Source of the DNA: an uncultured virus (IMG/VR IMGVR_UViG_3300037264_003342)
Taxonomy: Duplodnaviria > Heunggongvirae > Uroviricota > Caudoviricetes
Length of the DNA: 64,000 nucleotides
IMG/VR virus record: IMGVR_UViG_3300037264_003342
Direction: 5' to 3' (one strand)
The notes beneath the pieces were generated by a model. The model saw only the letters and a list, made by a program, of their open reading frames with translations. It did not search any database and was not told the origin of the DNA. The position numbers and the translations under genes are program-made. Below, piece after piece: positions 5,876 through 58,101 of this stretch (positions within the stretch are counted from its first letter, which is position 1; each line of letters opens with the position of its first letter).

Positions 5876-6523
5876 CTACTTCGTGACGGCCGCCCGGATG
5901 AGGCCGTGCAGCAGGTTCATCACCGGCAACGGCTGTTCGAGCACCGGGTTGGTGTACGGAACCGGCGGCTGCAACTGCGAGAGCCAGTTCCTCGGATCGA
6001 AGCGCAGGAGGCCTTCGAGTTCGTGGTTCTGGTTCAGCATCTGTCGCTTGATGAGCTTCGCGGCCGATGCCGTCGCAGGCACGCCGATCGAGATGATGCC
6101 CGCGTCGGTTTCGGTCGTCTGGCCGTAGAAGCCGTACCCGCTCGGATAGGCGATGGCTGGCCCTTCCGTCTGCAAGAGGTCGTTGATCTTCATGCGGTAG
6201 TAGGCGTTGTCGAGCGCCTTCTTCACGTCGCGCGGCACCTCGACGACGTTGCCGAGGACCGATCGCGGGTAGAGGCCGATCCGATCGAGGATCATGCTCT
6301 CGCCCGACGACAGCTTGCGCGGCGTCTTGATGTTGGTGTCGACCTCGCGCTTCGCCTGGATGTCGGCGAAGAAGATGAACTGCGAGCCGGGGACGATCTC
6401 GCCTTCGGGGATGATGATCGTGTCCCACTTGTCGCCTTCGCGGAAGTCGCGCACGTTCAGAATTTGGCCCGTCTCGGGATCCTTGAAGAGTCCCGGTTGA
6501 CCGTCGATCGGATTCATCGCCAT
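5876..6523 (-). CDS. Putative major capsid protein (single jelly-roll-like)
   Basis: 215 aa, strong AGGAGG RBS, strongly GC3-biased codons, FIFF..K...DTN....L..G...ILDRIG motif and C-terminal LHG strand. Lies between a membrane protein and other beta-rich genes. Confidence 0.6.
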   Translation of the reverse strand: MAMNPIDGQPGLFKDPETGQILNVRDFREGDKWDTIIIPEGEIVPGSQFIFFADIQAKREVDTNIKTPRKLSSGESMILDRIGLYPRSVLGNVVEVPRDVKKALDNAYYRMKINDLLQTEGPAIAYPSGYGFYGQTTETDAGIISIGVPATASAAKLIKRQMLNQNHELEGLLRFDPRNWLSQLQPPVPYTNPVLEQPLPVMNLLHGLIRAAVTK

Positions 6524-6575
6524 GGCTGTCGTCCTCCTGCTTTCCTAGCAATCTTGAAGTTGAAGTCCTGCGCCC

Positions 6576-7196
6576 CTACGACATGTAGGGGTTGTACCCG
6601 CCGAGCGTCTCACCCGCGACGACTGCCGCGTCGAGACTCATCAGTTGCTCCGGGTTCACGACGGTGCCTTCGAGGCTACCGAACGCTCCGCGCGAGGCGT
6701 AGACGTTGGTCGTCTCCAACGCTGCGAGTGCCGAGCCGCCGTCCGAGCCGTAGGCTGCGAGCAGCGCCTGGTCGTGCGCGGAGAGGGTGTCCTCTTCGGG
6801 CGTCTCGGCGAACGACCCGAGCGGGTACATCTTCGCCGTGCCGTGGCCGAGCAGGTTCTGGTCCTTGAAGAAGGAGTCGGCGAGCTGCGCGAGGCCGAGC
6901 CCCGAGACGCCTCCCACGACGGCCATCGCGGCGTCGCGGTTGTAGTCCCAGAGGAGCCGGCCGCCGAGCATCCCACCGAGGACGCCGAGGAGAGCGCTCA
7001 CGCGGTGGCGCATGGGCTCGTCGAGCTTTTCGAGCATCTTGCTCTTCGAGAACATCGGGAGCACCCAGCTCGCGAGCAAGATCGCCGCGCCGCTCGAACC
7101 CGCCGCAATCAGTTGATCCTGAAACATCTTCGGCGAGTAGTACGCTTCCATGCCCTCGTCGTACATGTCGAGTCCCATCAGATCGTCGTACGCCAT
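6576..7196 (-). CDS. Putative virion membrane protein
   Basis: Three Gly/Ala-rich hydrophobic segments, GGAGG RBS, directly upstream of the putative capsid gene. Confidence 0.65.
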   Translation of the reverse strand: MAYDDLMGLDMYDEGMEAYYSPKMFQDQLIAAGSSGAAILLASWVLPMFSKSKMLEKLDEPMRHRVSALLGVLGGMLGGRLLWDYNRDAAMAVVGGVSGLGLAQLADSFFKDQNLLGHGTAKMYPLGSFAETPEEDTLSAHDQALLAAYGSDGGSALAALETTNVYASRGAFGSLEGTVVNPEQLMSLDAAVVAGETLGGYNPYMS

Positions 7197-7272
7197 CTTT
7201 GCCTCCCTGCGACCAGGCTCTGGTGCAGCTTGTTGAGGTGAAGCTAACGCACGAAGAACTAGCGCGTCAACA

Positions 7273-7959
7273 TCAAACGGAGAAAACGCGCGAGTCGGCG
7301 ATCATGCTAACTGGAGGTTCCCAACCGAACGGCATCGGAACACTCGCGTCGAACGAGATCCACTTTCGCGGGCTCCGACGTGGAAGACCAATCTGCGCGT
7401 AGATGTGGTTCCAGCTCGGAGCGCCCTTCGTTTTGATGACCTTGAAGCGACACGGAAGACCAAGCGAGCCGGCGAGAGCACACGCGAGCGTGCTGTAGTC
7501 GTCGCAGTCGGCCGTGTGCAGAGCTAGCGTATGTCCAGGCTTTTGGTAGCTGTCGATGCCGGCGATGTCGCTCGTGTAGCGGACGTTCTGCCGGACGGCC
7601 TGGAAGAGAGCCTTGGCCTCGGCCAAGTTGTCTTTTTCCGGCACGCACCACATGTCGCCGCACTTCGCGTTCACAGCTCGACGAGCAAACTCGTAGACGG
7701 CCGGGTCTTTTTTTCCGGCATGCGCGAGCTTTCGGAGGTGGGCAATCCGCTCGTCGAGGTTCCTGATGTTGTAGGTCCGAAGGCGAATTGGGCCCGACGG
7801 GGTCTGCACGAAAACGTCGTTGGAGCGTCGAGAAGCAGGGGCCCAGGGCCTCGGGGGGTTCTTCGAGGGGATTGTCTTGAGCTGCCGAATTCCCCCTGAG
7901 ATCTGCCTGACTCCGAGCGCAATGCCGGCGAGCCCGAGAGCAATCTTGAGCGCCGACAT
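7273..7959 (-). CDS. Transglutaminase-like cysteine enzyme with N-terminal hydrophobic anchor
   Basis: ADCDDYS, WNHIY and WISFDAS give a Cys-His-Asp triad; VRYTSD motif. Confidence 0.85.
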   Translation of the reverse strand: MSALKIALGLAGIALGVRQISGGIRQLKTIPSKNPPRPWAPASRRSNDVFVQTPSGPIRLRTYNIRNLDERIAHLRKLAHAGKKDPAVYEFARRAVNAKCGDMWCVPEKDNLAEAKALFQAVRQNVRYTSDIAGIDSYQKPGHTLALHTADCDDYSTLACALAGSLGLPCRFKVIKTKGAPSWNHIYAQIGLPRRSPRKWISFDASVPMPFGWEPPVSMIADSRVFSV

Positions 7960-8001
7960 CGTAGGAGAAGCCTACAGCTTCACGCTAAGCTCTGTCTAGC
8001 C

Positions 8002-8715
8002 GTGATCACCTTCTCCGACGGTTTCGAGGAGGCCCCGCGAGCACGCCAAGAGCTGGTGGCGCGCGTCGAACCCCTCGTCAGGAAGTACATGGGCATTCTC
8101 GATGCCCAGACGCAGCCCGTCATCGTCGTGAAGGACAACATCGGATCGAGGTGGCTCGGTCGAACAGTCTGGTCGTTCGCAACTCCGAAGATGACGAGGA
8201 TCGAACTACAACGCCGAGTTTTCGACGATGACAAGACGCTGGAGCGCGTGCTTGCGCACGAGATGATCCACCACAGCGACTTCACGTCGCTCACCGATCA
8301 ACAGATCGCTCTCATGCGAATGCGACTCTTCTCTTCGCCTGGGCACGGGCGTTCGTTCACAGCCAAAGCCGAACAGATCAACGAGATCATGGGCGAGGAC
8401 TACGTCACTGAAACGTCGGACCAGACGTACACCCTGGCGACGGAAACGTCGAAGATGTTCTATCTCGTAGTTGCTCCCACTCCTATGCGAGAAGGGTACT
8501 ACGGGTACGCCTGGGCTGTTCGGTTGACCCCCGACATAGGAGCCTGTGCTCAACATTTCGTGGCGAGACGAGATGGAGTGCTCGTGGCCTCGCGCGATCC
8601 GCGTTGGACCCGTGGTGCGAAGCTCGGAAAGACTTGCAGAGGACTCAGCATCCCCTTGGACGCAGAAGACCAAGCAGAACTCGCTCGCCTGTACCAGACG
8701 AGGAGCAGCGTATGA
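8002..8715 (+). CDS. SprT-like zinc metalloprotease
   Basis: LAHEMIH followed by GHGRSF. Confidence 0.8.
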   Translation: MITFSDGFEEAPRARQELVARVEPLVRKYMGILDAQTQPVIVVKDNIGSRWLGRTVWSFATPKMTRIELQRRVFDDDKTLERVLAHEMIHHSDFTSLTDQQIALMRMRLFSSPGHGRSFTAKAEQINEIMGEDYVTETSDQTYTLATETSKMFYLVVAPTPMREGYYGYAWAVRLTPDIGACAQHFVARRDGVLVASRDPRWTRGAKLGKTCRGLSIPLDAEDQAELARLYQTRSSV

Positions 8716-9140
8716 AACGTGTCGCCGTACTGCTCCTGTTCGCGTTCTTCTGCGTGCCTGCGCAAGCTCGCCCGAGCGGCTGGCCCGTCGAAGTCACGCG
8801 CGTCATCGACGGCGACTCGTGGGTGCTCGACATCGAGCTAGGCCTCGACGTGCATGTGCGACGCACCGGCCGAGCGCTTTGTATCGATACGCCCGAGGTG
8901 TACGGAGCAACCCGAGAGGCTGGCTTGAAGGCCCGCGCCTTCGCAGTTCAGTGGATCGGCGAGCATTGCCCGTGCATCGCCGAGCCTGGTCCCGATCCTC
9001 AAGACAAGTACGGCCGTGTGCTCATCGTGTTGCACGATGCAGACACAGACGCCCAGCTCAACCGCGCGCTCCTCGACGCGGGGCACGCGGTCCCGTACCT
9101 CTGCCCCAACAACGTCTACCTGTTCGGCGCGAGTCCGTGA
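8712..9140 (+). CDS. Thermonuclease (SNase-like) with signal peptide
   Basis: VTRVIDGDS, IDTPE, DKYGRVL, LNRALLDAGHA; start reassigned to MKRVAVLLL. Confidence 0.85.
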   Translation: MKRVAVLLLFAFFCVPAQARPSGWPVEVTRVIDGDSWVLDIELGLDVHVRRTGRALCIDTPEVYGATREAGLKARAFAVQWIGEHCPCIAEPGPDPQDKYGRVLIVLHDADTDAQLNRALLDAGHAVPYLCPNNVYLFGASP

Positions 9141-9589
9141 GCTTGTCGGGTCTTACGGGCCGCGCGATCGACGTTCGAGATGACTTTTACGAAGTGCGGG
9201 TTCCTCAGAGCCTGAACTCCGGCCGGATGTCGACGGCCTTGTCGAACGGCCTGAATAGCCTGCGCGGCCGGCATGCCGTCGAGCACGAGCGCCAGAGCAA
9301 CGACAAGGCCCGAGCGGTTGATGCCCTGGGCGCAGGTCACGAGCACCCGAAGTCCTTGCCGGCGTAGCTCGTTCACGCGGCGTGCTCCGCGCAGAGCGAG
9401 CTTCACCTCGGCCGGCGTAGGCTCGTGATCGTCGAGGGGGACGCGGACGAGGATGCGCGGAGGATCTGGATGCTCAAAATGTTCTTGTAGCTCCTTCGCA
9501 CAGAGGACAAGAGCATTGAACTCGTATCGTACCGGGCCCCTCGGGTAAGAGCCCATCCAGAGCTTCGTGGCGATGCGTTGCGCGTCCAT
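9116..9589 (-). CDS. Dual-specificity/tyrosine phosphatase family protein
   Basis: CX5R loop VLVTCAQGINRSG, upstream PLDD, and a C-terminal NPHF. Confidence 0.85.
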   Translation of the reverse strand: MDAQRIATKLWMGSYPRGPVRYEFNALVLCAKELQEHFEHPDPPRILVRVPLDDHEPTPAEVKLALRGARRVNELRRQGLRVLVTCAQGINRSGLVVALALVLDGMPAAQAIQAVRQGRRHPAGVQALRNPHFVKVISNVDRAARKTRQAHGLAPNR

Positions 9590-10305
9590 CAGTCAGATTG
9601 AGCAGGCACGGGGGACCAGACGTTCAAGCACACGACGTTGCCGGTCATCGACATCTCGCGCGCGATTATGCGTTCTCGTTCGCTGAGAATGTGACTCATG
9701 GAGACGAACGTCACATCCCCTGGGGGAATGCCGAAACTGCCAAGTAGAAGCTCCGTGCCGTCTTCCAACACGAAGTTTACGATAGCTGTAGCGGGGTCTG
9801 GGGACCGATTCACAAACACGCTGCCGCCTAAGACCCCGGAGATGTTCCTCTGAGCGGCCTTCGGCGAGGGTGTGATGTCCTGAAACTCTGAAGTTAACAC
9901 GACACGGGTTGCCCGAAGTGGACTGCCGCCTGGGCAATCCACTAGATCGAAATGCACCCGACCAGAAGACCACTGGGCTCCTGTAAACGGATGGACGCGA
10001 ACCGCGAGCCTTTCAGATGGATCTTGAATGATTGGAGGGCCAAACGGGGCAGACTCCCCCGGAGCAATCGGTCCTACTAGGGGAGAAAGTGGAACCTCCC
10101 CGATGGTGGGGTTAATGAGAACAAGCTGAACTGTGAGAGTGCGAACTCCCGGTCCTGGTGGAGTGGTGTTCCAAATCAACCCACTCGTCTGTCGAAAAAT
10201 CCCTCTCCCCGCCGCAGGACTAACTGCCTCCGGCTCTGACGTGCTGAGTTGCCCGTCCAATGAGACGAAGAGGGGTCGTACAAGGCTGTGAAAAAAGAAC
10301 GGCAT
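9589..10305 (-). CDS. Hypothetical beta-rich protein (lower GC)
   Basis: 238-aa ORF coupled to its neighbours. Confidence 0.6.
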   Translation of the reverse strand: MPFFFHSLVRPLFVSLDGQLSTSEPEAVSPAAGRGIFRQTSGLIWNTTPPGPGVRTLTVQLVLINPTIGEVPLSPLVGPIAPGESAPFGPPIIQDPSERLAVRVHPFTGAQWSSGRVHFDLVDCPGGSPLRATRVVLTSEFQDITPSPKAAQRNISGVLGGSVFVNRSPDPATAIVNFVLEDGTELLLGSFGIPPGDVTFVSMSHILSERERIIAREMSMTGNVVCLNVWSPVPAQSD

Positions 10306-10310
10306 CTCTC

Positions 10311-10565
10311 TCAGCTCCTCGCAATGGCGTAGCCGACCGCAAAGATCCCGATAGCAGCGGCAAGAGCCGTCCCCTGGTTCAGGATGACCTTCTTGGAAGC
10401 GTCGAACCCCGAGAGCGTTCGACTCTCGGCCGTGCGCTGCTTGTTCACCGTCGAAGCAGCGATCCTCTTGCAGGTGCGGAGCGCCCGACGGCCGTCAGTC
10501 TTCCGGCAGCCCTTCAAGATGTGCTTGTACTGGCGCTCGTCCTTCTTCGACCATGCTGCAGGCAT
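10311..10565 (-). CDS. Small basic protein with C-terminal TM helix
   Basis: MPAAWSKKDERQYKHI...IAASTVNKQR, then LSGFDA and a hydrophobic tail. Confidence 0.7.
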   Translation of the reverse strand: MPAAWSKKDERQYKHILKGCRKTDGRRALRTCKRIAASTVNKQRTAESRTLSGFDASKKVILNQGTALAAAIGIFAVGYAIARS

Positions 10566-10580
10566 CGGAGATTCTCCCTT

Positions 10581-10904
10581 TCAACCGTAGCGAACAGACT
10601 TGCCCGGTCGTAGTCGTAGTCTGCAGCGCAGAGCTTGTCGGATCCGGCCCACCGGAGCCAAGCGCCCGTTCGGCAGAACGAAGAAGAGCCGATGGAAGTA
10701 CTTCCGGCCTTTCCTTCCGCTTGCACCTAGGGGGCCCTTGCCGCTCTTGAACAGGACGACAGTGTGGCCGTCCACGTCGAACACGCCCTTGCGGTCCTTC
10801 GGGATCGTCCTGTGCTGCACGCCGATCGCCTCGTACACGCGGTACATGATGTCGTTTCCCGCGCCTCGGTAGTCGCACAAGTTCTTTGTAAGCGGCTCTC
10901 TCAC
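10581..10904 (-). CDS. Hypothetical basic protein
   Basis: GTG start with AGGAGG RBS, in operon. Confidence 0.6.
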   Translation of the reverse strand: MREPLTKNLCDYRGAGNDIMYRVYEAIGVQHRTIPKDRKGVFDVDGHTVVLFKSGKGPLGASGRKGRKYFHRLFFVLPNGRLAPVGRIRQALRCRLRLRPGKSVRYG

Positions 10905-10920
10905 GTCGGACCTCCTGCCT

Positions 10921-11325
10921 TCACTCTATCGGGTTCCTGATCACCCGCCGAAGTACACGAGAAGCAAGAGCAACACCCGGCTCCCATTCCTCTGGACTTC
11001 CGTCACTCGATACCTTGATCTCTGAACCGTAGATGTCCTTCGCCGCCGCCAAACAAGCGGTGACGACGATGTCGTACGGCCTCTGCCCCGTCTTGCAGAA
11101 ATTGTGGCCTGCATCGCCAGGGAATAGGAACGTCTCGTAATCGTCAGGACTTCGACCGTTGAAAACGATCTCTTTCCTCGACGCTTTGGGTTCGCCGGTT
11201 CCATCCCCTCCGGCCAGAGGTACCGGAGAATTCTTGGCGATCTTAACCATCGCCGAGATCACTGCCGATGGCCTCTTGCTGTGCTTCGAGATGTCTGCGA
11301 CTTCCCAGTAGTGCGTGTAGCCCAT
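10921..11325 (-). CDS. Conserved phage hypothetical protein (MGYTHYW-type)
   Basis: MGYTHYW...FNG...YETF...FCKT..RPYD..V.A.L...VSSDG; start reassigned. Confidence 0.75.
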   Translation of the reverse strand: MGYTHYWEVADISKHSKRPSAVISAMVKIAKNSPVPLAGGDGTGEPKASRKEIVFNGRSPDDYETFLFPGDAGHNFCKTGQRPYDIVVTACLAAAKDIYGSEIKVSSDGSPEEWEPGVALASRVLRRVIRNPIE

Positions 11326-11327
11326 TG

Positions 11328-13017: not shown

Positions 13018-13043
13018 CCGGTTAGACGCACGAGACGCGCGGT

Positions 13044-40016: not shown

Positions 40017-41788
40017 TGGCTCTCACCCCCGAAGCTACGATCCGCATGCAGCGAGCTTTCAAGAGCCTCGGGAAGCGAGAAGTTCCAGCGACTCACGAGC
40101 TACAGCGGATTCTCGAACTCCCTCGACGCGTCTGGGAAGGCGACTCGGAGCTTGTCGAGTTCGCTGCGATGATGACGCGCTACTTCCGAGTCCCTGGGGG
40201 CTCGCAGGAGCTTTGGCCGGTGCAGGCGAAGGCTCTGCAAGATCTGCACGACATGGGCGGGCTCTACGGCCCGATCCCCGTCGGCGAGGGCAAGACGCTC
40301 ATCTCGTTCCTCGCTCCGACAGTCCTCGACGCAGAGCGACCTCTGCTCATCGTCCCGGCACGGCTCCGCGACAAGACCATCAGAGAGTTTGCCGCTCTCG
40401 CGCAGCACTGGAAGGAACATCCAGGGTTGCAGATCGTGAGCTACGAGAAGATCTCGCGCGAGAACGGCACGCAGTTCTTGCAGGACTACCAGCCCGACCT
40501 CTTGATCTTCGACGAGAGTCACCGCCTCAAGAACTTGAGAGCCGCCGTGACTCGCAAGGTGCGCTGGTGGATGGAAGCGCACCCGACTACCAAGGTGCTC
40601 GCGATGACCGGCACCTCGACCAAGCGAAGCCTCTTGGACTTCGCACACGTCCTCTACTGGTCGCTGCCGAACTGCTTCCCTCTCCCTCGGAGCCGCGACG
40701 AGCTAGAGGTCTGGGCGGCAGTCGTGGACGAGATCAAGACGTTCGAGAACCGCGTGCCGGCGTCCCCCGGAGCGTTGTTCGCGCTCTGCAACCCCTCAGA
40801 GCAGAGCCGAGGTCGACCTGGGATACGCAATGCTTTGCGTCGTCGGATCCAAGAGACGCCCGGCGTCGTGTCGCTCGAAGGCCAGTCGGTCGACGCGAGC
40901 TTGAACATCGAACTCGTGCTCGAAACCCACTACGGGCAACGCATTCGAGATCTGGCCGCTCGGCTCCAAGAAGGCTACCTCCCGAACGGCGACGTCTACT
41001 TCGTCGAGGGCCGTGAGGCCCAGGCGCTCACGGCCAAGTGGCGCATCATGCGAACGCTCACGAGCGGCTTCTGGTACGACTGGCAACCTCGGCCGCCCGA
41101 GGACTGGCTCGCGCTCCGCTCGGAGTGGCGCAAGGTCGTGCGGGGAGTCTTGGAGCGCAACATCCAGGGCCTGGAGTCGGAAGCTCTGATCGCTCGGGCC
41201 GCTGCGGCCGGCAAGCTCAACGACGTGATCGAAGCCCTCTACACTCACTGGCGCTCGATACGCGACGCACACAAATGGAACGTCGTGCCCGTCTGGGAAG
41301 ACGACACCATCATCGAGCGCGTCGCGCGGTGGGTCAAGGATCATACAGGCCTCATCTGGGTGAGCGAGGTGGCGCTCGGGCAGAGGCTGGAGCGAGATCT
41401 TGGGCTCTCCTACTACCACCAGCTCGGCCAGAACCGCCTCGGCCAACCAGTCGAGAGCGCGGAACCGAAGAAGGGCTCGATCGTTCTGAGCGTTCAGGCG
41501 AACTCCGAGGGCAGGAACCTTCAGGCCTGGAACGACAACCTCGTCATCAGCCCGCCGCCGACGGGCACGGTCTGGGAACAGATCATCGGCCGCACGCACC
41601 GCCAGGGCCAGGAGGCTGACGAGGTGTGGTTCGAGGTCGTCATCGGCTGCCAGGTCGAGTGGGACTGCTGGCTACAAGCCATGCGCGATGCGGCCTACGC
41701 GAGCGAGGTCGAGAGCAAGAAGCGGTTGCAGATGGCGACGATTGACCAGAAGTTCCGCCTGCCGGCGGAGGATGGAGGGTTGTGGTGA
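40013..41788 (+). CDS. SNF2/SF2-like helicase
   Basis: VGEGKT, LIFDESH, AMTGT, SEGRNLQ, EQIIGRTHRQGQ. Confidence 0.9.
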   Translation: MMALTPEATIRMQRAFKSLGKREVPATHELQRILELPRRVWEGDSELVEFAAMMTRYFRVPGGSQELWPVQAKALQDLHDMGGLYGPIPVGEGKTLISFLAPTVLDAERPLLIVPARLRDKTIREFAALAQHWKEHPGLQIVSYEKISRENGTQFLQDYQPDLLIFDESHRLKNLRAAVTRKVRWWMEAHPTTKVLAMTGTSTKRSLLDFAHVLYWSLPNCFPLPRSRDELEVWAAVVDEIKTFENRVPASPGALFALCNPSEQSRGRPGIRNALRRRIQETPGVVSLEGQSVDASLNIELVLETHYGQRIRDLAARLQEGYLPNGDVYFVEGREAQALTAKWRIMRTLTSGFWYDWQPRPPEDWLALRSEWRKVVRGVLERNIQGLESEALIARAAAAGKLNDVIEALYTHWRSIRDAHKWNVVPVWEDDTIIERVARWVKDHTGLIWVSEVALGQRLERDLGLSYYHQLGQNRLGQPVESAEPKKGSIVLSVQANSEGRNLQAWNDNLVISPPPTGTVWEQIIGRTHRQGQEADEVWFEVVIGCQVEWDCWLQAMRDAAYASEVESKKRLQMATIDQKFRLPAEDGGLW

Positions 41789-42744
41789 GTCACGCCGCAA
41801 AAATCCTCGCCGACTCCCTCTCGCCCGACGGCGTCCCGCTCACGACGTTCGAGGTGACGATGCCGCGCATCGTGCTCGCGGAGTTCAACACGCACCGTAT
41901 GTTCTCACGCAACAGTGCGAGTAGCAGAGCTATCCCAGTCAAGAAGATGATCGAGATGGTGATGGAGAATCCGTACATCCCGTCGAGTTGGGGCAAGAAT
42001 CAGAAGGGCATGCAGGCTGATGAAGTGCTGGATGCCAAAGAACAAGAAAAAGCAGAGCAGGTATGGCTCTGGGCTCGCGATGCGGCTGTTGAGAGAGCGC
42101 AGCAACTACGCAACATCGGCACCCACAAGCAGCTCACGAATCGCTTGCTCGAACCGTTCATGTGGCACACGGTCATCGTGACGGCGACCGAGTGGGACAA
42201 CTTCTTCCACCTCCGCAACAACGCGCAGGCGCACCCCGACATTCAGATCATCGCGAAGATGATGCAGGAGTTGTACGAGCAGCGAGAGCCGAGGAAGCTC
42301 GACTATGGGCAGTGGCATTTGCCGCTGATCGACCCAGACACGGACGTGGCAGTATGCAGAACGATGCGCGCCGGACGGACATTGGAAGAATGCCGCGAGG
42401 CGTTGTGCAAAATATCCATCGCCCGCTGTGCTCGTGTCTCGTACCTCACGCACGACGGCAAGCGAGACTTGCAAGCTGACCTCGACTTGCACGACCGGCT
42501 ACTCGAATCGGGACACTTGAGCCCATTCGAGCACGTTGCACGACCTATGACGGAAGCGGATGTGCGCGACTTGGACGGCATCGCAGTGTCTCGAACGACA
42601 ACGCACCAAGAGATCGATACGCCGCAAGTGCAGTACACCGGGCCAGTGCGAACGTGGCATCGTTGGTCGGGAAACTTTCGTGGCTGGGTTCAGTACCGCA
42701 AGCTCATCCCCAACGAGGCCGACATCCTCGGAGCGCGGAAGTGA
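41782..42744 (+). CDS. thyX: Flavin-dependent thymidylate synthase
   Basis: AEFNTHRMFSRNSASSRAIP, HKQ..NRLLEP, WDNFF.LR, HLSPFEH. Confidence 0.88.
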   Translation: MVSHAAKILADSLSPDGVPLTTFEVTMPRIVLAEFNTHRMFSRNSASSRAIPVKKMIEMVMENPYIPSSWGKNQKGMQADEVLDAKEQEKAEQVWLWARDAAVERAQQLRNIGTHKQLTNRLLEPFMWHTVIVTATEWDNFFHLRNNAQAHPDIQIIAKMMQELYEQREPRKLDYGQWHLPLIDPDTDVAVCRTMRAGRTLEECREALCKISIARCARVSYLTHDGKRDLQADLDLHDRLLESGHLSPFEHVARPMTEADVRDLDGIAVSRTTTHQEIDTPQVQYTGPVRTWHRWSGNFRGWVQYRKLIPNEADILGARK

Positions 42745-42937: not shown

Positions 42938-43492
42938 ATGACGTCGCTAGAAAAAGTCGAAGGGGTAATAGGCAAGTTCCGCAACCCGGCAACAGGACAG
43001 ATCTACACCATCAACGACTGGTGGGAGGCTGATCTGCTCACGCAGCGTTTCATGATCCCAGTCGATCAAATTTCGCCGGTAGTTCTGCAAGGACGTGCTC
43101 CGTCGGAATTCGTACTGCGCCAGTTGGTCTACGTGCTCGACGCCGACACGCGCCCGGATGACAAGGAAGAGTTCAAGCACTCGGGCCGGATCGACATCTT
43201 CATCAACGGCACGAGAGCGACCTCGCTTCCTATGTTGCTCATGGAGTACTCGGCCGAGGCACTGCTGGAGATCATTCAAGCTGTGAAATCGGGGGAAGCG
43301 TGGGCGTTCGTCGATGAGTCACGGGCGCAGGTTGGAGCAGACGTCTGGCGCGTTCTGCAGGGATGGCGTCTCAGCCAGCCGCTCCTGTTCCCGAAGGACT
43401 CGAAGTGGGAGATCTCGATCGGGACGAACGGCAGGTGCTACGTCGAGGGGACGATCACCGGCATCGGCTTTGCTAAGCGAGGGTTCGCATGA
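42938..43492 (+). CDS. Diverged paralog of the putative capsid protein
   Basis: GKFRNPATGQIYTINDWWEAD aligns with GLFKDPETGQILNVRDFREGD of 5876-6523. Confidence 0.55.
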   Translation: MTSLEKVEGVIGKFRNPATGQIYTINDWWEADLLTQRFMIPVDQISPVVLQGRAPSEFVLRQLVYVLDADTRPDDKEEFKHSGRIDIFINGTRATSLPMLLMEYSAEALLEIIQAVKSGEAWAFVDESRAQVGADVWRVLQGWRLSQPLLFPKDSKWEISIGTNGRCYVEGTITGIGFAKRGFA

Positions 43493-43860: not shown

Positions 43861-43941
43861 CCACGAACTAGGATACGGCTATACGTTTGCGCAAACGCAG
43901 GAGGCAGCTCCTGTTTCTACAACTACAACTCGGAGGACAGC

Positions 43942-44424
43942 ATGGGCAAGTACGACCACATCGCAAGTGCCAAGGTCACGAAGAGCGGCCAGTTCTTCAT
44001 ACCGGGGCGTTACAAGGTCCGCATCTCGGCCGTGAAGGAAGTCGCTTCACAGATGGGCAAGGACTTCACCATCATCGAGACGACGGTGTTGCAGAGCAAC
44101 AACCCCGACGTTCCGGTCGGGGCATCGCGCTCCCACGTCATCGACATGAACAACGTGATGGGCATCATCAACATCAAGGCCTTCGTCGCGGCCGCGAGCG
44201 GGGTCGACCCGACGCTCGAAACGGTCAACGACCAAGTCGAGGCGTACTGGAAGGCGCAAGATCCGCACGGGGTCTACCGCAGCTTCGCGCAGATCGTCGA
44301 AGACCTGATCGTGAAGGCGAACATCCTCGAAGGGGCCGAGATGGACCTGGAGTGCGTTGCAATCCGCAAGCGGGACGGCGACCCGTTCACGAAATACAAC
44401 TGGGCGATTCGACACGACCAGTAA
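43942..44424 (+). CDS. Putative single-stranded DNA-binding protein
   Basis: GGAGG RBS, position just upstream of PolA, FIPGRY.V.I...K.G.PFTKYNW. Function inferred from context. Confidence 0.5.
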   Translation: MGKYDHIASAKVTKSGQFFIPGRYKVRISAVKEVASQMGKDFTIIETTVLQSNNPDVPVGASRSHVIDMNNVMGIINIKAFVAAASGVDPTLETVNDQVEAYWKAQDPHGVYRSFAQIVEDLIVKANILEGAEMDLECVAIRKRDGDPFTKYNWAIRHDQ

Positions 44425-44507
44425 ATTTTCGCCTGGGGTTACTCCTTTTCCCAGGTGAACCGTGTGGTCCCGAGCGGCCTAGGGGTAGGAATTCGGGGCA
44501 CTCACCA

Positions 44508-46712
44508 ATGCCAACTGTCGGTTTTGATTGCGAGACATGGCTCATCGAACCGGGGCAGCTCGCTCCGCCGATGGTCTGCTTGTCGCTCGCGTGCTGGGAC
44601 AGCGTCTGGGTCTACCACGTCGACCCCGAGCTATCCCCGGAGCCGATCTCACTCTACCCGAGCAAGGTCGAGCCGCCGGCCAAGACGGCCAAGGACGCCT
44701 TCCGCTGGCTCCTGAAGCAGGAGGCGGCGTACGGTCTGAACGTCGCCTACGACGTCGCGGTGTGCCTCGCCGAGTGGCCGGAGCTGTTCCCCGAGGTCTT
44801 CGAGGCCTACAACGACGGCCGGGTGATCGACGTCGGGCTCTGTCAGCAGCTCATCGACAACGCCCACGGCAAGCTCAAGACCATGCAGGCGCTCTACGGC
44901 TACTCGCTCGCCGGGCTAGAGCGCAGATGGTTGCGCAGGGACAGACGAGATCAGAAGGAAGGCGCGAGCGCCTGGCGACTCCGCTACCGCGAGCTTCACC
45001 CCGTGCCGCTCGTGAGCTGGCCGCGCGAGGCCGTGGAGTACGCGGCCGAGGACGCCATCGGAGCGCGAGAGATCGGCGTCTTGCAGTTCAACTCGGAAGA
45101 CAACAAATACCTGCGCGATACTCCAGCCCAGTCGCGCTCGGCGTTGGCGCTCCAGTTGATGATGTGCTGGGGGACGATGACCGCTGCCGCGAAGATCGAA
45201 ACGCTCCGCAAGTTCGCAGAGGAGAAGTACTGGGAGCTGTCTGACGAATTGGTGAAGCCGGAGCACGGCTCGCTCGTGCGCGGTTTCAGCGTCAAGCGAA
45301 ACATGCAGTGGACGAAGGACACAACGGCCGCCCGAACGCGGATGCTTGAAGTCTGCCGCGCGCATGGCCTACCGATTCAACTCACGGACACAGGGTACAA
45401 GAAGTACCTCAAGTACTTGCGCGAGAACGGCGGGGAGGAGAAGGACATCACGCCCGAGGAGGTCTTCACCGAGGACGAGCTACTGCAGTACGCCGCCATC
45501 GACGAGGATGCCTGCCAGCGCACGGGCGACGAGATCTTGATAGCGTTCTCCCTTCGGTCGCAGCTTCATACGCTCCTCTTCACACACGTCGAAGACCTCC
45601 TGCGAGGCGTAGAGACACCGATTCAGCCACGGTACACGACGATGGTCGACTCGGGTCGAACGGCGTGCAGCAAAGGTGAGCGGGGCAAGAGTCCGACGAA
45701 CGGCTTCCAGTTCCAGAACCCGAAGAGGATCTACATGTGGATCCCACCGGGCGAGACGAAGCCCGTGCCGCTCTTCCCGCCCGGCATCGGCGTGCGCGAG
45801 TGCTTCATCGCTCGGCCCAGCATGTGGTACGCCGACAACGATTTCTCGGGCCTCGAACTCTGCACAGGGGCCCAAGCTTGCATTGACCTCGTCGGCCACT
45901 CGAAGCTCGGCGATGCGCTGAACGCCGGCATCGACCCGCACCTCGATTTCGGAGCGGTGCTGATGGGCCTCTCGTACGAGGATGCCCTGTCTCGAAAGCA
46001 CGAGAAGGAAGTGAAGTACCACCGGCAGTTGGCCAAGATCGCCAACTTCGGCTTGCCTGGCGGCTTGGGCGTTCGCGGTGTGATGGGGTTCGCTCGTGGC
46101 TACGGGGTTGTTCTGAGCGAGGATGATGCGAAGAAGCTCAAGGCTGACTGGTTCGCGAAGTACCCCGAGTGGCGAGACTACTTCGCCTGGATCCGGCAGA
46201 ACCTGGAGCTAGAGATCGAAGTCGACAGCGACAACGAGCACGAGGCCCGCGTCAACATGCGCGGAGCCTTCGAGCAGCTCCGGGTCGGGCGAGTGCGAGG
46301 TCGCTGCAGGTTCACCGAGGCCTGCAACACCTTCTTCCAGGGCCTCGGGGCCGACGTCGCGAAGAGAGCGCTCTGGGCCGTCGCGGAGCGGTGCTACATG
46401 CAGGTGCCAGGCTCTGTGCTCTACGGTGTGCGGCCTGTGGGCTTCATCCACGACGAGATCTTGGCCGAGGTCAACGAGGACCGAGCCCACGAGCAAGCCT
46501 TCGAGATGGCCCAGGTGATGGTCGACGCCGGCAACACGCTCCTGCCCGACGTGCCGGTGAAGTGCATGCCCGCGCTCTCGAAGTACTGGTGCAAGGACGC
46601 CGAGGCCGTCTTCGACAAGAGCGGACGACTCCAGCCGTACGATCTCGCGCGTGAGGGTCGGTGGCGGGTGTACTACGACGCAAACGCGGAGGTGAGGGTG
46701 CAATGGGCATGA
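44508..46712 (+). CDS. DNA polymerase family A with 3'-5' exonuclease domain
   Basis: Exo motifs FDCET, NVAYD, YAAED; SGRTACS; motif A DFSGLEL; motif B RQLAKIANFG; NTFFQG; motif C IHDEI. Start reassigned to MPTVGFD. Confidence 0.93.
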   Translation: MPTVGFDCETWLIEPGQLAPPMVCLSLACWDSVWVYHVDPELSPEPISLYPSKVEPPAKTAKDAFRWLLKQEAAYGLNVAYDVAVCLAEWPELFPEVFEAYNDGRVIDVGLCQQLIDNAHGKLKTMQALYGYSLAGLERRWLRRDRRDQKEGASAWRLRYRELHPVPLVSWPREAVEYAAEDAIGAREIGVLQFNSEDNKYLRDTPAQSRSALALQLMMCWGTMTAAAKIETLRKFAEEKYWELSDELVKPEHGSLVRGFSVKRNMQWTKDTTAARTRMLEVCRAHGLPIQLTDTGYKKYLKYLRENGGEEKDITPEEVFTEDELLQYAAIDEDACQRTGDEILIAFSLRSQLHTLLFTHVEDLLRGVETPIQPRYTTMVDSGRTACSKGERGKSPTNGFQFQNPKRIYMWIPPGETKPVPLFPPGIGVRECFIARPSMWYADNDFSGLELCTGAQACIDLVGHSKLGDALNAGIDPHLDFGAVLMGLSYEDALSRKHEKEVKYHRQLAKIANFGLPGGLGVRGVMGFARGYGVVLSEDDAKKLKADWFAKYPEWRDYFAWIRQNLELEIEVDSDNEHEARVNMRGAFEQLRVGRVRGRCRFTEACNTFFQGLGADVAKRALWAVAERCYMQVPGSVLYGVRPVGFIHDEILAEVNEDRAHEQAFEMAQVMVDAGNTLLPDVPVKCMPALSKYWCKDAEAVFDKSGRLQPYDLAREGRWRVYYDANAEVRVQWA

Positions 46713-52425: not shown

Positions 52426-52432
52426 GGTCGAG

Positions 52433-53245
52433 ATGCCGAAACGCGCAACAGGAGAGTTTCAGAAGAGTGTCTCTGAGCCGACACCGATCACTCTGGGGTT
52501 GAAAAAGATTGAACCGAACCCGGCATTTCGGTACACGACTCCGAGTCACCTTGGCAAGCGCCGAGAGGGAGAGCGACGCTCCCACGGCTGCATCGAAGAG
52601 ATCCGTGACCGTTGGTGCTACGTGCCTCCAGGCAAGACCGAGAAGGGAAAAAAGAAGGGCGCGAAGTGCTTTCACACCGAAGAGGAGGCGGCGAAGAACG
52701 CTGACGGGGCCAAGGTCGTCTACAAGCCAGAGAAGAAGTTCAACGGCAAGCGCTGTCGCTCTGGGCCTCGTGAAGCGTGCAAGGACACCGTCTACGACGC
52801 CTTCTGTGCGGGGTCGTCCGACCCCTGCGGCTCTCCACGCTCCACATGTCCTGTGCAGCTCGTCTGGGTGGACGGAAAGCCCAACCTTCGGTTCTGTCGC
52901 GAGCTGGGGAAACCGGGGCACCTCGTGCCGGTGTCGAACATCAGCGAGGCGATGAAGATCAGCGACGCTGCCTGTGCGAAATGGCCCTACAAGCTCGGGG
53001 TCGTCGACCGTGCCGACGGCACGGAGGGTGAGGGGGGCTGGGATCCCGAGTTCTTCGATAAGCACGCCCCCGAGGTGCTAGAGCGGGCCAAGAGGGCCTA
53101 CCCCGAGAGCGCCGGCTTCGGGGCTCTGCCTCGCCGCCGAGGCCGGAGCCGGCGTCAACAGGCCAGTGGCCCGTGGCTCGCCATCGGGCTCGCGATGGGG
53201 GTCGGAGCGGCCGTGCTCTTGAAGCGCCAGGGCGAGTCAGGGTAG
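52433..53245 (+). CDS. Cys-rich basic protein with C-terminal TM anchor
   Basis: About ten Cys residues; AGFGAL followed by an Arg run and PWLAIGLAMGVGAAVLLKR. Confidence 0.7.
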   Translation: MPKRATGEFQKSVSEPTPITLGLKKIEPNPAFRYTTPSHLGKRREGERRSHGCIEEIRDRWCYVPPGKTEKGKKKGAKCFHTEEEAAKNADGAKVVYKPEKKFNGKRCRSGPREACKDTVYDAFCAGSSDPCGSPRSTCPVQLVWVDGKPNLRFCRELGKPGHLVPVSNISEAMKISDAACAKWPYKLGVVDRADGTEGEGGWDPEFFDKHAPEVLERAKRAYPESAGFGALPRRRGRSRRQQASGPWLAIGLAMGVGAAVLLKRQGESG

Positions 53246-54387: not shown

Positions 54388-54686
54388 CAGCTACCGCACT
54401 TTTCACAGATGTGGTTGGTCGACTCTGCGTCTAACTCCCAGAGCCAGTCGAACTCGTTGGTGTGGGGGAAGATCGTGGCTGCGATGCGCTCGACGCGGTC
54501 GAGCAGCTCCGAGGTGGCTCGGGGAGCGTGGTACATGCTGCAGAGGATCCGATTCGTCGTCACTGGAGTGATCGGCCGTAGTGTCTTCTCCAAGGAGTCG
54601 ACGAAGATGTGGCCGAAGGGCGAGATGAGGACGTCGGCCACTTGGGCTTTGACGACCACCTGGCAGTTCTCCATCTCCAACATCAT
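54387..54686 (-). CDS. Hypothetical protein
   Basis: Coupled ORF. Confidence 0.5.
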   Translation of the reverse strand: MMLEMENCQVVVKAQVADVLISPFGHIFVDSLEKTLRPITPVTTNRILCSMYHAPRATSELLDRVERIAATIFPHTNEFDWLWELDAESTNHICEKCGS

Positions 54687-57061
54687 ACAGGAAGTCCGAG
54701 GATGCGCTCAGTGAGCTTCGTCCAGCGCTCGTTCTGCATGGCGCTAGTCGAGGCGGTTTCGACAGCCTGGCGAGCCCCTACGAGGACGAGGTTCCGGCTC
54801 GTGCGCGTGACGGCCGTGTAGAGCACCTGCCGGCGCAGGAGCCGTCCGTGCGAGGGGTCCATGACGACGAAGACGAACGGCCACTCCGAGCCCTGGCTCT
54901 TGTGGATGGACATGCCGTAGGCGAGCCAGAGCGCCCTGAAGTGCTCGCCCTTCAGCATGTAGAGGCCGTCCGCTCGCTCCGGGTTCTCCTGACCGTCGAT
55001 GCGAACGAGAGCGAAGGTGCTCTGAATGCTGCTGTCCTCTCGGTCGATGTCTTCGACCCAACCCATGCTCCCGTTGACGAGGCCGAGCTTCGGAGAGTTC
55101 TTCGTGTACATGACCTTGTCGCCGATGTGGATCTTGTAGCCGTCCCCGCCGCTGATGCCGTCCTTTTCGTTCAGGCTGCGAGGGTTCAACTTCTTCTGCA
55201 CGGCCAGGTTGATCTCGTAGGCGCTCGCCCCGACGCCCTTCTTGCGGACTGGAGCGAGCACCTGCATCTGCTTGATGTAGCCGTTGCTGCGAGCGATCTC
55301 GTAGGCCCGGATGATCTTCTCGATGATCTCGCGAGAGCTACTCGCCTCCTCGAAGCGGAAGTCACCGTTGGGGCTCGTCACCGGAGCGAGGCTTGGGAGC
55401 TGGCCGTTGATGATGCGCCGAGCGTTCTCGATGACCCAGTTCTCGCCGGCTTGCCTGTGCGTCTTCGTGAGCTGGTAGACCGGGAGCGCAGACTCTCCGT
55501 CGATCTTGGCCTTCAGGATGTCGGTGAGCACTTGGCCGGGGCCGACAGGCGGCAGTTGGTCCTTGTCTCCGACCAGAATTACCCGTGCTCCGCCAACGGC
55601 CGAGAAGAAAGCCGAGGCGAGATTGATGTCGAGCATGCTCGTCTCGTCTAGGACGATGACGTCGGCCTCGATCGGGTTCGACTCGTCTCGGCGAAAGCCA
55701 TCCGGTGTCCATTCGAGGAGACGGTGGATGGTCGTGGCTGGGCGACCCGTAGCCTCTGTCATCCGCCGCGCTGCCTTTCCGGTCGGAGCTGCGAGGACGA
55801 TCTTCTCTTCACCCATGGCGTTGAGGGCGGCGCGCAGGGTCGTCGTCTTTCCAGTGCCAGGGCCGCCTGTCATCACCACGAGCTTGGAGAAGACGAGCGC
55901 TTCGGCAGCGGCCTTCTGGCTCTCGTCGAGTGGAGGTCGATCTGGTTGATCGAAGCTCACTGGCCGGACCTCGACCTCGTGAAGCGCCTTCTCTCGTAGG
56001 ACTCTGGCGACGTTTACTTCGGCAGCGTCGATGTCGGCGAGGAGGAGAGCGTTCGTGCGGATCTTGAGGTACTTGCTCTTGGAGAGAATCTCGCCGAGTT
56101 CCTTCATCGAGTAGCCGAACTTCGTGAACGGTTTGAGAGCTGAGACTGCGTAGTCTCGGTCGAGGAAGCAGTCCCCACCGTCTCGCCCCCAGACGGGCCG
56201 GTACTTCTCGTCGCGGGTCATCTTGCGGTTCTCCATGACGCCCGTGATCAGCTCTCGCAGATCTGAGTCACCTTCTTGGAGTCGTTCAAGGAACTCGCGC
56301 ACGTACGCCTGGATGAAGCGCAGGTCTTTCTGCTCCATGCCGTTGGGGTTGTCCTTGCGCTCGATGAAGAGCTTCACCATCTTGAAGCTCCAGCCGGGTA
56401 GATCGACAAGCTCGAAAGGATTTTCCCTCAACGTGCGCTTCAGGCCCTCGATGCCGAGCTGTTCGACCGCATCGGACGCGAGGCGAAAGTCGATGCCGAG
56501 GTTCACCAACTCGGAGACTGGGATGCGCTCGTGCTTGTACTTCTCGTAGGTTTTCTTGATCTCCTGTGCGCGTTCGCTCGTGATGCCAGAAACGGCTGTC
56601 AGTTGCTCCGGGTCGTCTTGGATGACCGAGAAGAGCAGCTCTCCGGGGAACTTCTCGGCGAGCGCGCTCGCGCGAGCTTCCCCGATGTTCGGGAGCCGCC
56701 GCATGAGCCACATCCGCATCCCGTCGATCGAATAGGGTGTGTTCGAGCGCAAGAGCGTGACGATGAACGTCGGATCGAAGCGGTCGGACGGCTGCCACCA
56801 GCCTTCGACTTCGAGGACGGAGCCGACGCCGACGTCGATGCCGACGTCACCCTTCCACGATTCGAGCTTGGTCGAGGCCCTGCGGCCTTTGCCGAAGGGC
56901 CCGCCCTCCTCGGTGACTTCAACCTTCAGAATCTTGAAGGAGTTGCCTGGTGACTCCCAGGCAACACGCTTCACCGTTCCTTTGTTGGTCTGGATCGGAC
57001 CTTGGGGCTCCTCGTCGTCGCCCGGCCGTTCGCCCAGCTCGTCGTTGTCGTCGAGAGCCAT
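54683..57061 (-). CDS. recD2: RecD2-like SF1B helicase
   Basis: N-terminal OB and HhH (LPNIGE.RA, VSGI), TGGPGTGKTT, APTGKAARR, TIHRLL, DETSM, GDKDQLPPVGPG, SIHKSQGSE, LYTAVTR. Confidence 0.92.
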   Translation of the reverse strand: MALDDNDELGERPGDDEEPQGPIQTNKGTVKRVAWESPGNSFKILKVEVTEEGGPFGKGRRASTKLESWKGDVGIDVGVGSVLEVEGWWQPSDRFDPTFIVTLLRSNTPYSIDGMRMWLMRRLPNIGEARASALAEKFPGELLFSVIQDDPEQLTAVSGITSERAQEIKKTYEKYKHERIPVSELVNLGIDFRLASDAVEQLGIEGLKRTLRENPFELVDLPGWSFKMVKLFIERKDNPNGMEQKDLRFIQAYVREFLERLQEGDSDLRELITGVMENRKMTRDEKYRPVWGRDGGDCFLDRDYAVSALKPFTKFGYSMKELGEILSKSKYLKIRTNALLLADIDAAEVNVARVLREKALHEVEVRPVSFDQPDRPPLDESQKAAAEALVFSKLVVMTGGPGTGKTTTLRAALNAMGEEKIVLAAPTGKAARRMTEATGRPATTIHRLLEWTPDGFRRDESNPIEADVIVLDETSMLDINLASAFFSAVGGARVILVGDKDQLPPVGPGQVLTDILKAKIDGESALPVYQLTKTHRQAGENWVIENARRIINGQLPSLAPVTSPNGDFRFEEASSSREIIEKIIRAYEIARSNGYIKQMQVLAPVRKKGVGASAYEINLAVQKKLNPRSLNEKDGISGGDGYKIHIGDKVMYTKNSPKLGLVNGSMGWVEDIDREDSSIQSTFALVRIDGQENPERADGLYMLKGEHFRALWLAYGMSIHKSQGSEWPFVFVVMDPSHGRLLRRQVLYTAVTRTSRNLVLVGARQAVETASTSAMQNERWTKLTERILGLPV

Positions 57062-57489
57062 CAGGCCATCCCCCTCTCGGCGCAGACGGGACCGAGGCCG
57101 CGCTCGATGCTCGCGGGGTCGGTGAGGAGCCTGTTGCACCTGGAGCACTTCCCCTCGTGCCACACCTCGACGTCGTCGGTCCCGAGGTTGCGCCAGGTCC
57201 AGTCCCACGCCTTCGCGCTCGGGGCATCGGGGCCGATCTGACTCTTCGTGCCTCGGTAGTAGTTGCCGCCGGGGAAGATCGTGCCGATAAATTCGTAGTC
57301 CTTACGGTTGTCCGGGCCTGTGAGCACGCTGACGAAGTGGACCGGCTGCTGGCCTTCTTTGGGCTTGCTCTCGCGAATGCGGTAGGTGAAGCGGTCGCCT
57401 GACCGCTTCGAGACGAGCGTCACGACGGCGTCGCCGCCGAGGATGTAGTCCCGCCGGTATTCTGGAGCCAGTTGTGCGCCGTCTGCCAT
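57061..57489 (-). CDS. DUF6011-like protein
   Basis: A..TL.S..SG.RFTY...FVSVLTGPDN..DY; HEGKCSRCNRLLTDP.SIERGLGPVCA. Confidence 0.8.
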   Translation of the reverse strand: MADGAQLAPEYRRDYILGGDAVVTLVSKRSGDRFTYRIRESKPKEGQQPVHFVSVLTGPDNRKDYEFIGTIFPGGNYYRGTKSQIGPDAPSAKAWDWTWRNLGTDDVEVWHEGKCSRCNRLLTDPASIERGLGPVCAERGMA

Positions 57490-57579
57490 CGTTGCCTCCT
57501 GGCCCTACCAGGGCCGCTCGATCCCTCGGACGAGAGCCCTGGGGTCGGGATTCTATCGTGATGGGGGGAATTCGTCCAT

Positions 57580-58101
57580 TTAGGCTATCACGTTGCGCCC
57601 CCAACCCTCCAGCCGCAGCGAGAACACCTTGGTCATCTCTCGGAGCCGCACGAAATCATCTAATGGTCCGCACACACGCACTTCGATCTCGTGCTGGTTG
57701 GAGAACAGCACCCCTGGTGCTTGAAATTCTGTTGCTCGTCGTGGCGGCACGATCTTCATCGCCTCTTCCAGGGCCCCGAGACGCTTTTCGATGTCCGCGT
57801 TTTCAGAGTTGGCCAGCGGACGAGCTGTCTCGAAGAGTGGGATGTCGAATAGAATTAAATCGTTGACTATGAACTGCACTGTGAGCCCAGCCGAGATCAC
57901 CTCAGGCCACGGGTGCATGAGGATCGACCACCGTTCCAAAATCCACGACCACCCGACGCGGGGGCGAACAAGGTCTTTCAACCCTCGGTGGTCGAAAGCG
58001 AAAAGCTGATCGAACGATCTAAAGTCTCGCATGTTGACCATCTCCCCTGTCTCTGTGTCGCGAAAAAGACCGGGATGGCCAGTAGTTGCTCTCAAGGTCA
58101 T
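57580..58101 (-). CDS. Diverged paralog of the putative capsid protein
   Basis: GHPGLFRDTETGEMVNMRDFR vs GQPGLFKDPETGQILNVRDFR; ILER/ILDR, VNDL/INDL, NQHEIE/QNHELE. Confidence 0.75.
   Translation of the reverse strand: MTLRATTGHPGLFRDTETGEMVNMRDFRSFDQLFAFDHRGLKDLVRPRVGWSWILERWSILMHPWPEVISAGLTVQFIVNDLILFDIPLFETARPLANSENADIEKRLGALEEAMKIVPPRRATEFQAPGVLFSNQHEIEVRVCGPLDDFVRLREMTKVFSLRLEGWGRNVIA

Follow-up and report, generated by a model that had tools for sequence, protein, structure and literature searches.

Why do three genes scattered along one viral genome begin with the same short peptide? The question is raised by an uncultured virus classed among the Caudoviricetes (IMG/VR record IMGVR_UViG_3300037264_003342), of which a stretch of 64,000 nucleotides, referred to below as the window, was analysed. 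The window represents 64 kb of an 84.7-kb contig, and more genes of the same kind may lie beyond it. A preliminary description had noted three open reading frames (ORFs) with an unusual common N-terminus, had taken one of them for a putative capsid protein and the other two for its diverged paralogues, and had proposed that these two act as capsid mimics. All three ORFs were found in the window where they had been placed, each with the N-terminus quoted for it, and three genes of this ~85 kb virus open with the same 32-residue N-terminal peptide, here called the arm:

5876..6523, minus strand: 215-aa hallmark jelly-roll protein, putative major capsid protein with arm (conservation, AlphaFold2 (AF2) model)
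6428..6523, minus strand: arm of the 215-aa protein, residues 1-32, MAMNPIDGQPGLFKDPETGQILNVRDFREGDK (BLASTP, arm profile)
57580..58101, minus strand: 173-aa arm protein, likely a diverged jelly-roll paralogue; its arm is residues 1-32 (58006-58101) (homologues, AF2, hhalign)
42938..43492, plus strand: 184-aa arm protein; its arm is about residues 2-33 (BLASTP, hhalign)

In pairwise BLASTP comparisons, 16 of 32 N-terminal residues were identical between the 215- and 173-aa proteins (E 7e-10), 11 of 30 between the 215- and 184-aa proteins (E 8e-6) and 10 of 32 between the 173- and 184-aa proteins (E 0.008). Nothing but the N-terminus was detected by BLASTP among the three. The shared N-terminus, which was the main point of the preliminary description, is therefore significant over 30-32 residues, and the description as a whole was borne out in part. 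The arm follows, over ~32 residues, the consensus M-x-L-x-P-I-E-G-Q-P-G-L-F-R-D-x-x-T-G-Q-x-V-N-I-R-D-F-R-E-x-D, and four regular-expression motifs searched in all six frames of the window matched solely at the starts of these three ORFs. It is kept by homologues of each protein, namely by 30 of the 215 family, by three plus one of the 173 family and by P0172 for the 184-aa protein. Searches of the three arm proteins against Pfam, PHROGs, NCBIfam and PADLOC returned nothing usable, the sole match being that of residues 1-24 to phrog_473, a 'virion structural protein', with an E of 0.05.

The arm is conserved at the level of the protein and not of the DNA. The same codon is used for only 4 of the 16 residues that are identical between the 215- and 173-aa arms, and the 60 nt upstream of the arm-gene starts are identical at 16-21 of 60 positions. 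A cause at the DNA level, such as a common promoter, leader or RNA element, was rejected because the upstream regions do not align and the identical residues mostly differ in codon. Shine-Dalgarno-like sequences, AGGAGGA or GGAGGA, precede the 215- and 184-aa starts; the 173-aa start lies 4 nt past the upstream stop codon, and the purine-rich stretch preceding it is weak.

That the likeness is due to chance, or that the arm genes are functionless fragments of duplicated genes in the course of decay, appears very improbable. Copying of pieces of the capsid-like gene does seem to occur: in a related 82.7-kb genome, G003, a 114-aa ORF with a cysteine-rich N-terminus (52392-52736; L011:12392-12736:+) resembles, at its C-terminus, the stretch 24-66 of that genome's own capsid-like protein (E 3e-6), and judged by its sequence it looks like a copied gene fragment. 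However, the E-values are significant, full-length homologues of 44-57% identity retain the arm, and the ORFs of the window are intact, two of them with the ribosome-binding sequences just mentioned.

The 215-aa protein has 246 relatives at E<=1e-3, on contigs of up to ~100 kb. The 120 relatives listed were 59-100% identical, and among them neither a Pfam family nor an informative name was found ('hypothetical protein' only). No match was obtained in 50,697 deposited phage records (INPHARED, tblastn). Its gene is the best-conserved gene of the sole block common to all relatives, and its G+C content at third codon positions (0.89) is among the highest, with four of the 86 called genes higher and one equal. 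The AF2 model is beta-rich and forms a jelly roll, with a predicted local distance difference test score (pLDDT) of 69.8; its structural matches to jelly rolls and capsid proteins are weak, and sequence profiles of the 215-, 202- and 251-aa families gave nothing below E 0.4 against the PDB. 

The hallmark gene set of HK97-fold tailed phages (Caudoviricetes) did not turn up at the thresholds applied. PHROGs and Pfam identified neither a terminase nor a portal or HK97 capsid gene in the window, nor any of these in G003 (98 ORFs by PHROGs, 57 by Pfam). The same holds for two further relatives, G001 and G002, taken together (96 of 107 ORFs of >=180 aa, PHROGs and Pfam, the remainder being 6 ORFs that straddled locus cuts and 5 genes of the block), in which the only terminase-family matches were weak P-loop hits to the N-terminus of a G002 helicase. 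Very divergent versions of these genes may have escaped detection. The jelly-roll model, the highest conservation in the lineage, the place in a universally kept block and the lack of recognised HK97-type genes together make a capsid role of the 215-aa protein plausible.

The same structural evidence also bears on a different reading, which takes the 215-aa protein not for a shell component but for an adhesin- or lectin-like, a decoration or fibre or an extracytoplasmic protein, with an arm that binds some other common ligand or partner. We consider this unlikely. The structural matches are generic, capsid proteins being on a par in score with nucleoplasmin, PHM, TNF/C1q, tail fibre domains and the cement protein of a phage; moreover, proteins of peptidoglycan-binding, fibre-like repeat and membrane-like kinds are encoded in the block, and in G001 proteins similar to phrog_2647 'head decoration' and to tail fibres lie beside it. 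On the other hand, an identity of 59-87%, as seen across the 119 other listed clusters and across all genomes, would be unusual in an adhesin or a fibre but is typical of shell proteins, and three complete genomes yielded no further recognisable candidate for the capsid.

For the 173-aa protein, the likeness to the 215-aa protein continues beyond the arm. The public gene call of this ORF starts at Met21 and thereby omits the arm; as its three homologues (54-57% identity) retain it, the long form is taken to be right. In G003, a 197-aa orthologue is encoded. Profile-profile comparison of the 215 and 173 families gave a probability of 98.3% and E 1.8e-14 over 63 columns and, with enlarged families, E 6.9e-16 over 168 columns, pairing ILDRI with ILERW, INDL with VNDL, NQNHELE with SNQHEIE and LHGLIR with LEGWGR. 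Without the arm, the signal fell to E 0.017 for the small profiles and to E 1.2e-3 over 123 columns, at a probability of 20%, for the enlarged ones. Colinear matches downstream of the arm, claimed earlier for both outlying proteins, thus exist for the 173-aa protein, where they are weak once the arm is removed; for the 184-aa protein nothing past ~46 columns reaches significance.

The best AF2 model of the 173 family (five sequences) reached a pLDDT of 81.9 and a predicted template modelling score (pTM) of 0.77, with jelly-roll matches. The order of elements is colinear in the 215 and 173 models, beginning with three short N-terminal strands and a long strand, which are followed by the ILDRI/ILERW strand, the INDL/VNDL strand pair, the HELE/HEIE strand, a helix and the last strand. 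The two models have 29 of their top-50 VIA entries in common. Capsid chains of HCIV-1, HHIV-2, SH1, P23-77 and SPV1 occur among the structural matches of both, and those of HCIV-1 and HHIV-2 are among the chains aligned from before residue 10 in both. As had been described from the sequence, the FF..K..DTN segment is missing from the 173-aa protein, falling into a gap of its alignment to the 215 family, and a helix (residues 101-114 in the AlphaFold model) stands in place of the GYGFYG loop, occupying the site of the GYGFYG...GVPATASA region of the 215-aa protein. Fold, colinearity and the weak signal from the body together make it probable that the 173- and 215-aa proteins are diverged paralogues, and by its jelly-roll model and colinear alignment the 173-aa protein is the only one of the two outlying proteins found to be of the same fold class.

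The 184-aa protein behaves differently. Against the 215 family, hhalign gave E 1e-5 over 46 columns; its body alone reached only E 0.27-0.46 against the classes denoted M and S and E 0.024 against S2, so that judging from these comparisons the arm is all that it shares significantly with the others. One homologue, P0172, is 44% identical over the full length. The ESM Atlas model has a pTM of 0.64; the nearest structures are mostly unnamed clusters, the first one viral, and the named parts aligned to it, C-JID and DUF3344, stay below the family-naming bar (TM <=0.62) and serve as a lead only. Paralogy, as proposed in the preliminary description, therefore applies to the arm in all three proteins and reasonably well to the whole of the 173-aa protein, but for the body of the 184-aa protein the similarity was not significant.

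The arm is also found far beyond this genome and on many other bodies. A profile built from 8 sequences and spanning 45 positions was searched against 1.84 billion representative proteins and returned 94 representative clusters at E<=1e-3, of which 88 are apparently related. The clusters were sorted by script, and all sequences were inspected save five long repeat proteins. Six clusters held full-length capsid-like proteins, which belong to a more distant clade (MLKPIKG.PGRF...LHGLIK.AVSK). In 37 clusters a different body, or a fragment, bore the arm at its N-terminus; 173-like proteins belong here, as do a related set ending ...PVEGAGLRVHLRGL, one 184-like protein (P0172) and helical or zinc-finger-like bodies. 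In a further 21 the arm lay at about residue 40-130, after TRRxFL... plus a hydrophobic segment and an EPVRRYWQVG motif (the RR class), and in 24 it followed some other upstream region, in some cases rich in lysine and arginine; several of the latter resemble the RR class by eye. The remaining six were unrelated repeat proteins (plectin, SprB and similar), five sorted as repeats plus P0202, a plectin-repeat protein in which no arm domain was found on re-scanning. Besides plectin repeats, the profile also catches a Cys-flanked PGKIRNPKTGRCI repeat (P0202, P0208, P0189); both are probably convergent hairpin motifs of similar pattern.

Some of the signal-anchor-like forms run on into capsid-like segments or end ...YL[HN]GLIR.A, which in the capsid-like protein is the final strand. 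When the bodies alone were compared, the pairs M-S and S-S2 gave E 1.2e-3 and E 3.4e-5, and all other pairs were not significant. As with the cargo proteins of T4 discussed below, a short N-terminal sequence is common to proteins of one virus that are otherwise unrelated. Sampled members of the arm classes matched no Pfam family, the TAT_signal family scoring 17.5-17.7 bits, below its cutoff of 22.7. A pattern search for the RR class yielded 29 matches, none with an arm, and for the N-terminal half of this class no homologue was found in the window or in G001-G003. A scan of metagenomes for arm loci gave 33, of which 30 carry a capsid-like gene and two are short RR-class contigs; at the remaining locus, L086, no arm-bearing ORF was found at E<=1e-3. 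Among 401 genomes of one phylum, the only arm gene was the capsid-like gene of G006. The distribution of forms also bears on whether the 215-aa protein builds a shell at all: at least 21 of the 88 related clusters place the arm after an RR plus hydrophobic, Tat-like segment (Tat, twin-arginine translocation), so that the partner of the arm need not be cytoplasmic, and this keeps the reading as an adhesin, fibre or extracytoplasmic protein alive.

Within the lineage, arm genes other than the 215-aa gene were found at E<=1e-3 in three of seven related genomes, in all cases outside the block. There are two in the window, one in G003 (the 197-aa gene) plus the fragment described above, and one in G002, an ORF of ~131-140 aa with an uncertain start that has the arm alone in common. 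None was found at this threshold in G001 or in G005, G006 and G007, three virus-sized contigs from metagenome-assembled genomes, with two marginal candidates in G006 (E ~0.04). The region of thyX and the 184-aa gene has no counterpart in G001-G003. This absence and the sporadic spread mark the arm genes of the window as accessory. Their neighbours are those named in the preliminary description, as confirmed by PHROGs and Pfam:

41782..42744, plus strand: thyX, upstream in the operon of the 184-aa gene (PHROG 85, E 3e-82; Pfam Thy1)
43887..46712, plus strand: family A DNA polymerase, downstream of the 184-aa gene (family scans)
54683..57208, minus strand: RecD-like helicase, on the strand of the 173-aa gene and downstream of it (phrog_4412, E 6e-104; AAA_19, AAA_30, UvrD_C_2)

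Between the 173-aa gene and the RecD-like helicase, the window encodes a DUF6011 / phrog_20259 protein (57061-57489, minus strand); the same pairing with the helicase occurs in G003.

Given their shared fold class, arm and base strands, the 173-aa protein and its like might count among the regular structural proteins, as subunits of pentons, vertices or special capsomers. This explanation is improbable, since the genes lie outside the structural block, in four of the seven related genomes they were not found at E<=1e-3, and the bodies vary by genome, being of the 173/197-aa type, of the 184-aa type or, in G002, the ORF of ~131-140 aa. Pairs of shell protein and diverged same-fold paralogue in one genome are well known from PRD1 (P3/P31), T4 (gp23/gp24) and giant viruses, and in this respect the situation is alike. 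The paralogues of those viruses are essential and conserved, and their genes usually lie together with the structural ones. Here, by contrast, they are sporadic (three of seven genomes, none in the block), stand among replication genes and are well conserved only in the arm.

The position of the genes is compatible with the proposal, which builds on the preliminary description, that the arm proteins are non-structural mimics of the capsid, made together with the replication genes. They would bind subunits of the capsid, one of its partners or a sensor of the host, so as to act as decoys, as assembly poisons against co-infecting relatives or as modulators of timing or size. Such a role would suit genes in replication operons, between thyX and polA and beside the RecD-like helicase. 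It would also suit a presence in three of seven genomes, as is expected for conflict genes, and an accessory role would fit this too. In addition, the 173-aa protein keeps the arm and the core strands without the two invariant loops, which could be the make-up of a dominant-negative subunit. We nevertheless regard mimicry as a rather unlikely function, as the arm proteins had no defence or anti-defence matches in PADLOC, as an arm also present on signal-anchor-like, basic and helical bodies is a poor fit to mimicry by whole capsid genes, and as a poison acting through the shared arm would strike the virus's own assembly too. A literature search for decoys derived from capsid paralogues found nothing relevant, which does not show novelty.

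We tentatively read the arm as a portable docking module by which accessory proteins are brought to one and the same assembly, while putting the chances of this reading at somewhat less than even. The docking, and the recruitment that goes with it, we infer from the shared arm, its conservation at the protein level, its modular spread and the jelly-roll models. The arm would form a small beta-hairpin ahead of the jelly roll of the 215-aa protein, most likely the major capsid protein, and through it this hallmark protein would lock into the assembly, binding either neighbouring subunits or a partner such as the 202-aa protein encoded next to it. The arm would have been copied many times onto other bodies. 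One such copy would be the 173-aa protein, a jelly-roll paralogue that keeps the arm and core strands, has lost two invariant loops and has gained a helix; another would be the 184-aa protein, with the arm on a beta-rich body. Accessory proteins bearing the arm would then be recruited to the assembly as minor or cargo components.

Several points weigh against docking. The location of the arm genes in replication operons suits non-structural roles equally well. No packaging ATPase of the FtsK/HerA type was recognised by Pfam or PHROGs in the window, G001, G002 or G003; Walker A motifs in those G003 ORFs that have relatives elsewhere were confined to replication helicases and a GP88-like protein. 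For the 173 family, only two of the five AF2 models were confident. By their sequence, the forms with RR and a hydrophobic segment look like Tat or signal-anchor proteins, which would place the arm outside the cytoplasm and is awkward for docking to a capsid in the cytoplasm. Finally, the arm has a high pLDDT within the monomer fold, and judging from the models it may serve folding only.

Among known systems, the internal proteins of phage T4 are the closest analogy to the arm as a docking module. According to the account in PMC3012670, the diverse internal proteins IPI, IPII, IPIII and Alt have a common capsid targeting sequence and are loaded into the prohead. On this account, the likeness would lie in a short conserved N-terminus on diverse, variable accessory proteins encoded away from the head genes. 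The T4 sequence is a short peptide aimed at the scaffolding core, whereas the arm comprises ~32 residues, is predicted to be beta and forms the N-terminus of the presumed shell protein itself, in a lineage in which no HK97-type genes were seen. The capsid targeting sequence of T4 has ~10 residues and is cleaved off by the prohead protease. Tail fibres and spikes of phages likewise combine a conserved N-terminal anchor with variable distal domains and resemble the arm proteins in having a conserved attachment module with exchangeable bodies; however, the arm is far shorter, and its 215-aa carrier is conserved over its whole length.

A second comparison concerns the virus rather than the arm. 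In Sphaerolipoviridae, Simuloviridae, Matsushitaviridae and SPV1, so far as the sources cited here describe them, a jelly-roll protein of ~200 aa is encoded next to another small and conserved protein, much as the modelled jelly roll of 215 aa here adjoins the 202-aa candidate partner. For viruses whose capsid consists of two small jelly-roll proteins, genomes of 16-31 kb are described there (PMC12643093, PMC12642351). These viruses have an internal membrane and a packaging ATPase of the FtsK/HerA type, whereas none like it was recognised in this lineage, and as to an internal membrane, only hydrophobic segments in neighbouring proteins were seen. A bolder version of the docking reading, which we regard as doubtful, is that these are bacterial viruses of an undescribed lineage of 70-100 kb with a shell of small single jelly-roll proteins instead of an HK97 capsid, in which the arm is a general address tag that places jelly-roll, membrane-anchored, DNA-binding-like and helical proteins within the capsid or beneath it. 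Should the arm be a tag for docking, the minor virion and cargo proteins of an uncultured lineage could be listed from sequence, and jelly-roll particles could be loaded with proteins by a handle that nature provides. A jelly-roll lineage of this kind would also extend the genome size range known for jelly-roll capsid viruses of bacteria. Should the accessory proteins instead be capsid mimics in conflicts between viruses or between virus and host, they would represent a new kind of counter-measure.

The lineage is notable for combining large genomes, phage-like replication genes and a jelly-roll hallmark protein of ~215 aa with a lack of recognisable genes for tailed-phage morphogenesis. In the literature, no description of it or of the arm motif was found, although publication elsewhere is possible. 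The 215-aa gene occurs in three IMG/VR records with direct terminal repeats, G003 and the larger G001 (101.9 kb) and G002 (88.8 kb), and on four contigs from metagenome-assembled genomes labelled Gemmatimonadota in two cases and Anaerolineae and Actinomycetota in one each. Of the four, three are virus-sized (74-86 kb), and such varied taxon labels on contigs the size of a whole element say little about the host. The lineage consists of unannotated elements of 70-100 kb with one conserved block and phage-like replication genes; besides thyX, the family A polymerase and the RecD-like helicase, the window encodes a D5-like primase-helicase, an exonuclease, a helicase and a methyltransferase.

The block was compared across nine related loci (G001-G003, L087-L090, L058 and L063) and corresponds to 1566-7959 and 20147-23067 of the window. 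It begins with a protein of ~1000 aa that has peptidoglycan-binding stretches, followed by proteins of 136, 202, 215 and 206 aa, and continues with the transglutaminase-core protein of 228 aa, a protein of 670 aa rich in Q, P and E, and a tyrosine recombinase. In the window, its members other than the 215-aa gene include:

1566..4775, minus strand: 1069-aa block protein with peptidoglycan-binding and endolysin-like stretches and hydrophobic segments (family scans)
4775..5185, minus strand: 136-aa block protein (found in 6 of 9 loci: G001-G003, L087, L088 and L058)
5190..5798, minus strand: 202-aa protein, candidate partner or second capsid protein (adjacency, 48-79% identity)
6576..7196, minus strand: 206-aa Gly/Ala-rich block protein with a hydrophobic segment (block comparison)
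7273..7959, minus strand: 228-aa transglutaminase-core (papain-like) block protein (Pfam PF01841, E 2e-12; conserved)

The 202-aa gene adjoins the 215-aa gene in all nine related loci, at 48-79% identity. Its product matched no family in Pfam, PHROGs or NCBIfam, had no relative in the PDB and showed no profile similarity to the 215 family. The 670-aa protein (21055-23067, plus strand) has a (GE)n tail, lies beside the tyrosine recombinase in most relatives and is unmatched in L088; it was considered as a terminase and rejected, given this composition and the lack of a Walker A motif. In the window, the block is split by ~12 kb of other genes (8000-20000; SprT-like, phosphatase-like, RuvC-like and others), which separate the transglutaminase-like gene from the pair of 670-aa and recombinase genes, and this pair is inverted relative to G001-G003. 

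The ORF at 238-2010 on the minus strand and its orthologues contain repeats of the type VIDPSxGANYSGGSS...PL.PS..GLAGL and have a fibre-like look. Beside the block of G001, two genes (3093-4211 and 4608-9218; L019) encode proteins of 372 and 1536 aa which match phrog_2647 'head decoration' at E 2e-80 and 6e-100 and also tail fibre families; they have no counterpart in the window. Near the end of the window lie three paralogues resembling reductases of 3'-phosphoadenosine 5'-phosphosulfate (58936-59928, minus strand; 60461-61363 and 61533-62540, plus strand), with PADLOC matches to BrxP, SspD and DndC, and by these sequence matches they may form a DNA-modification or anti-defence set.

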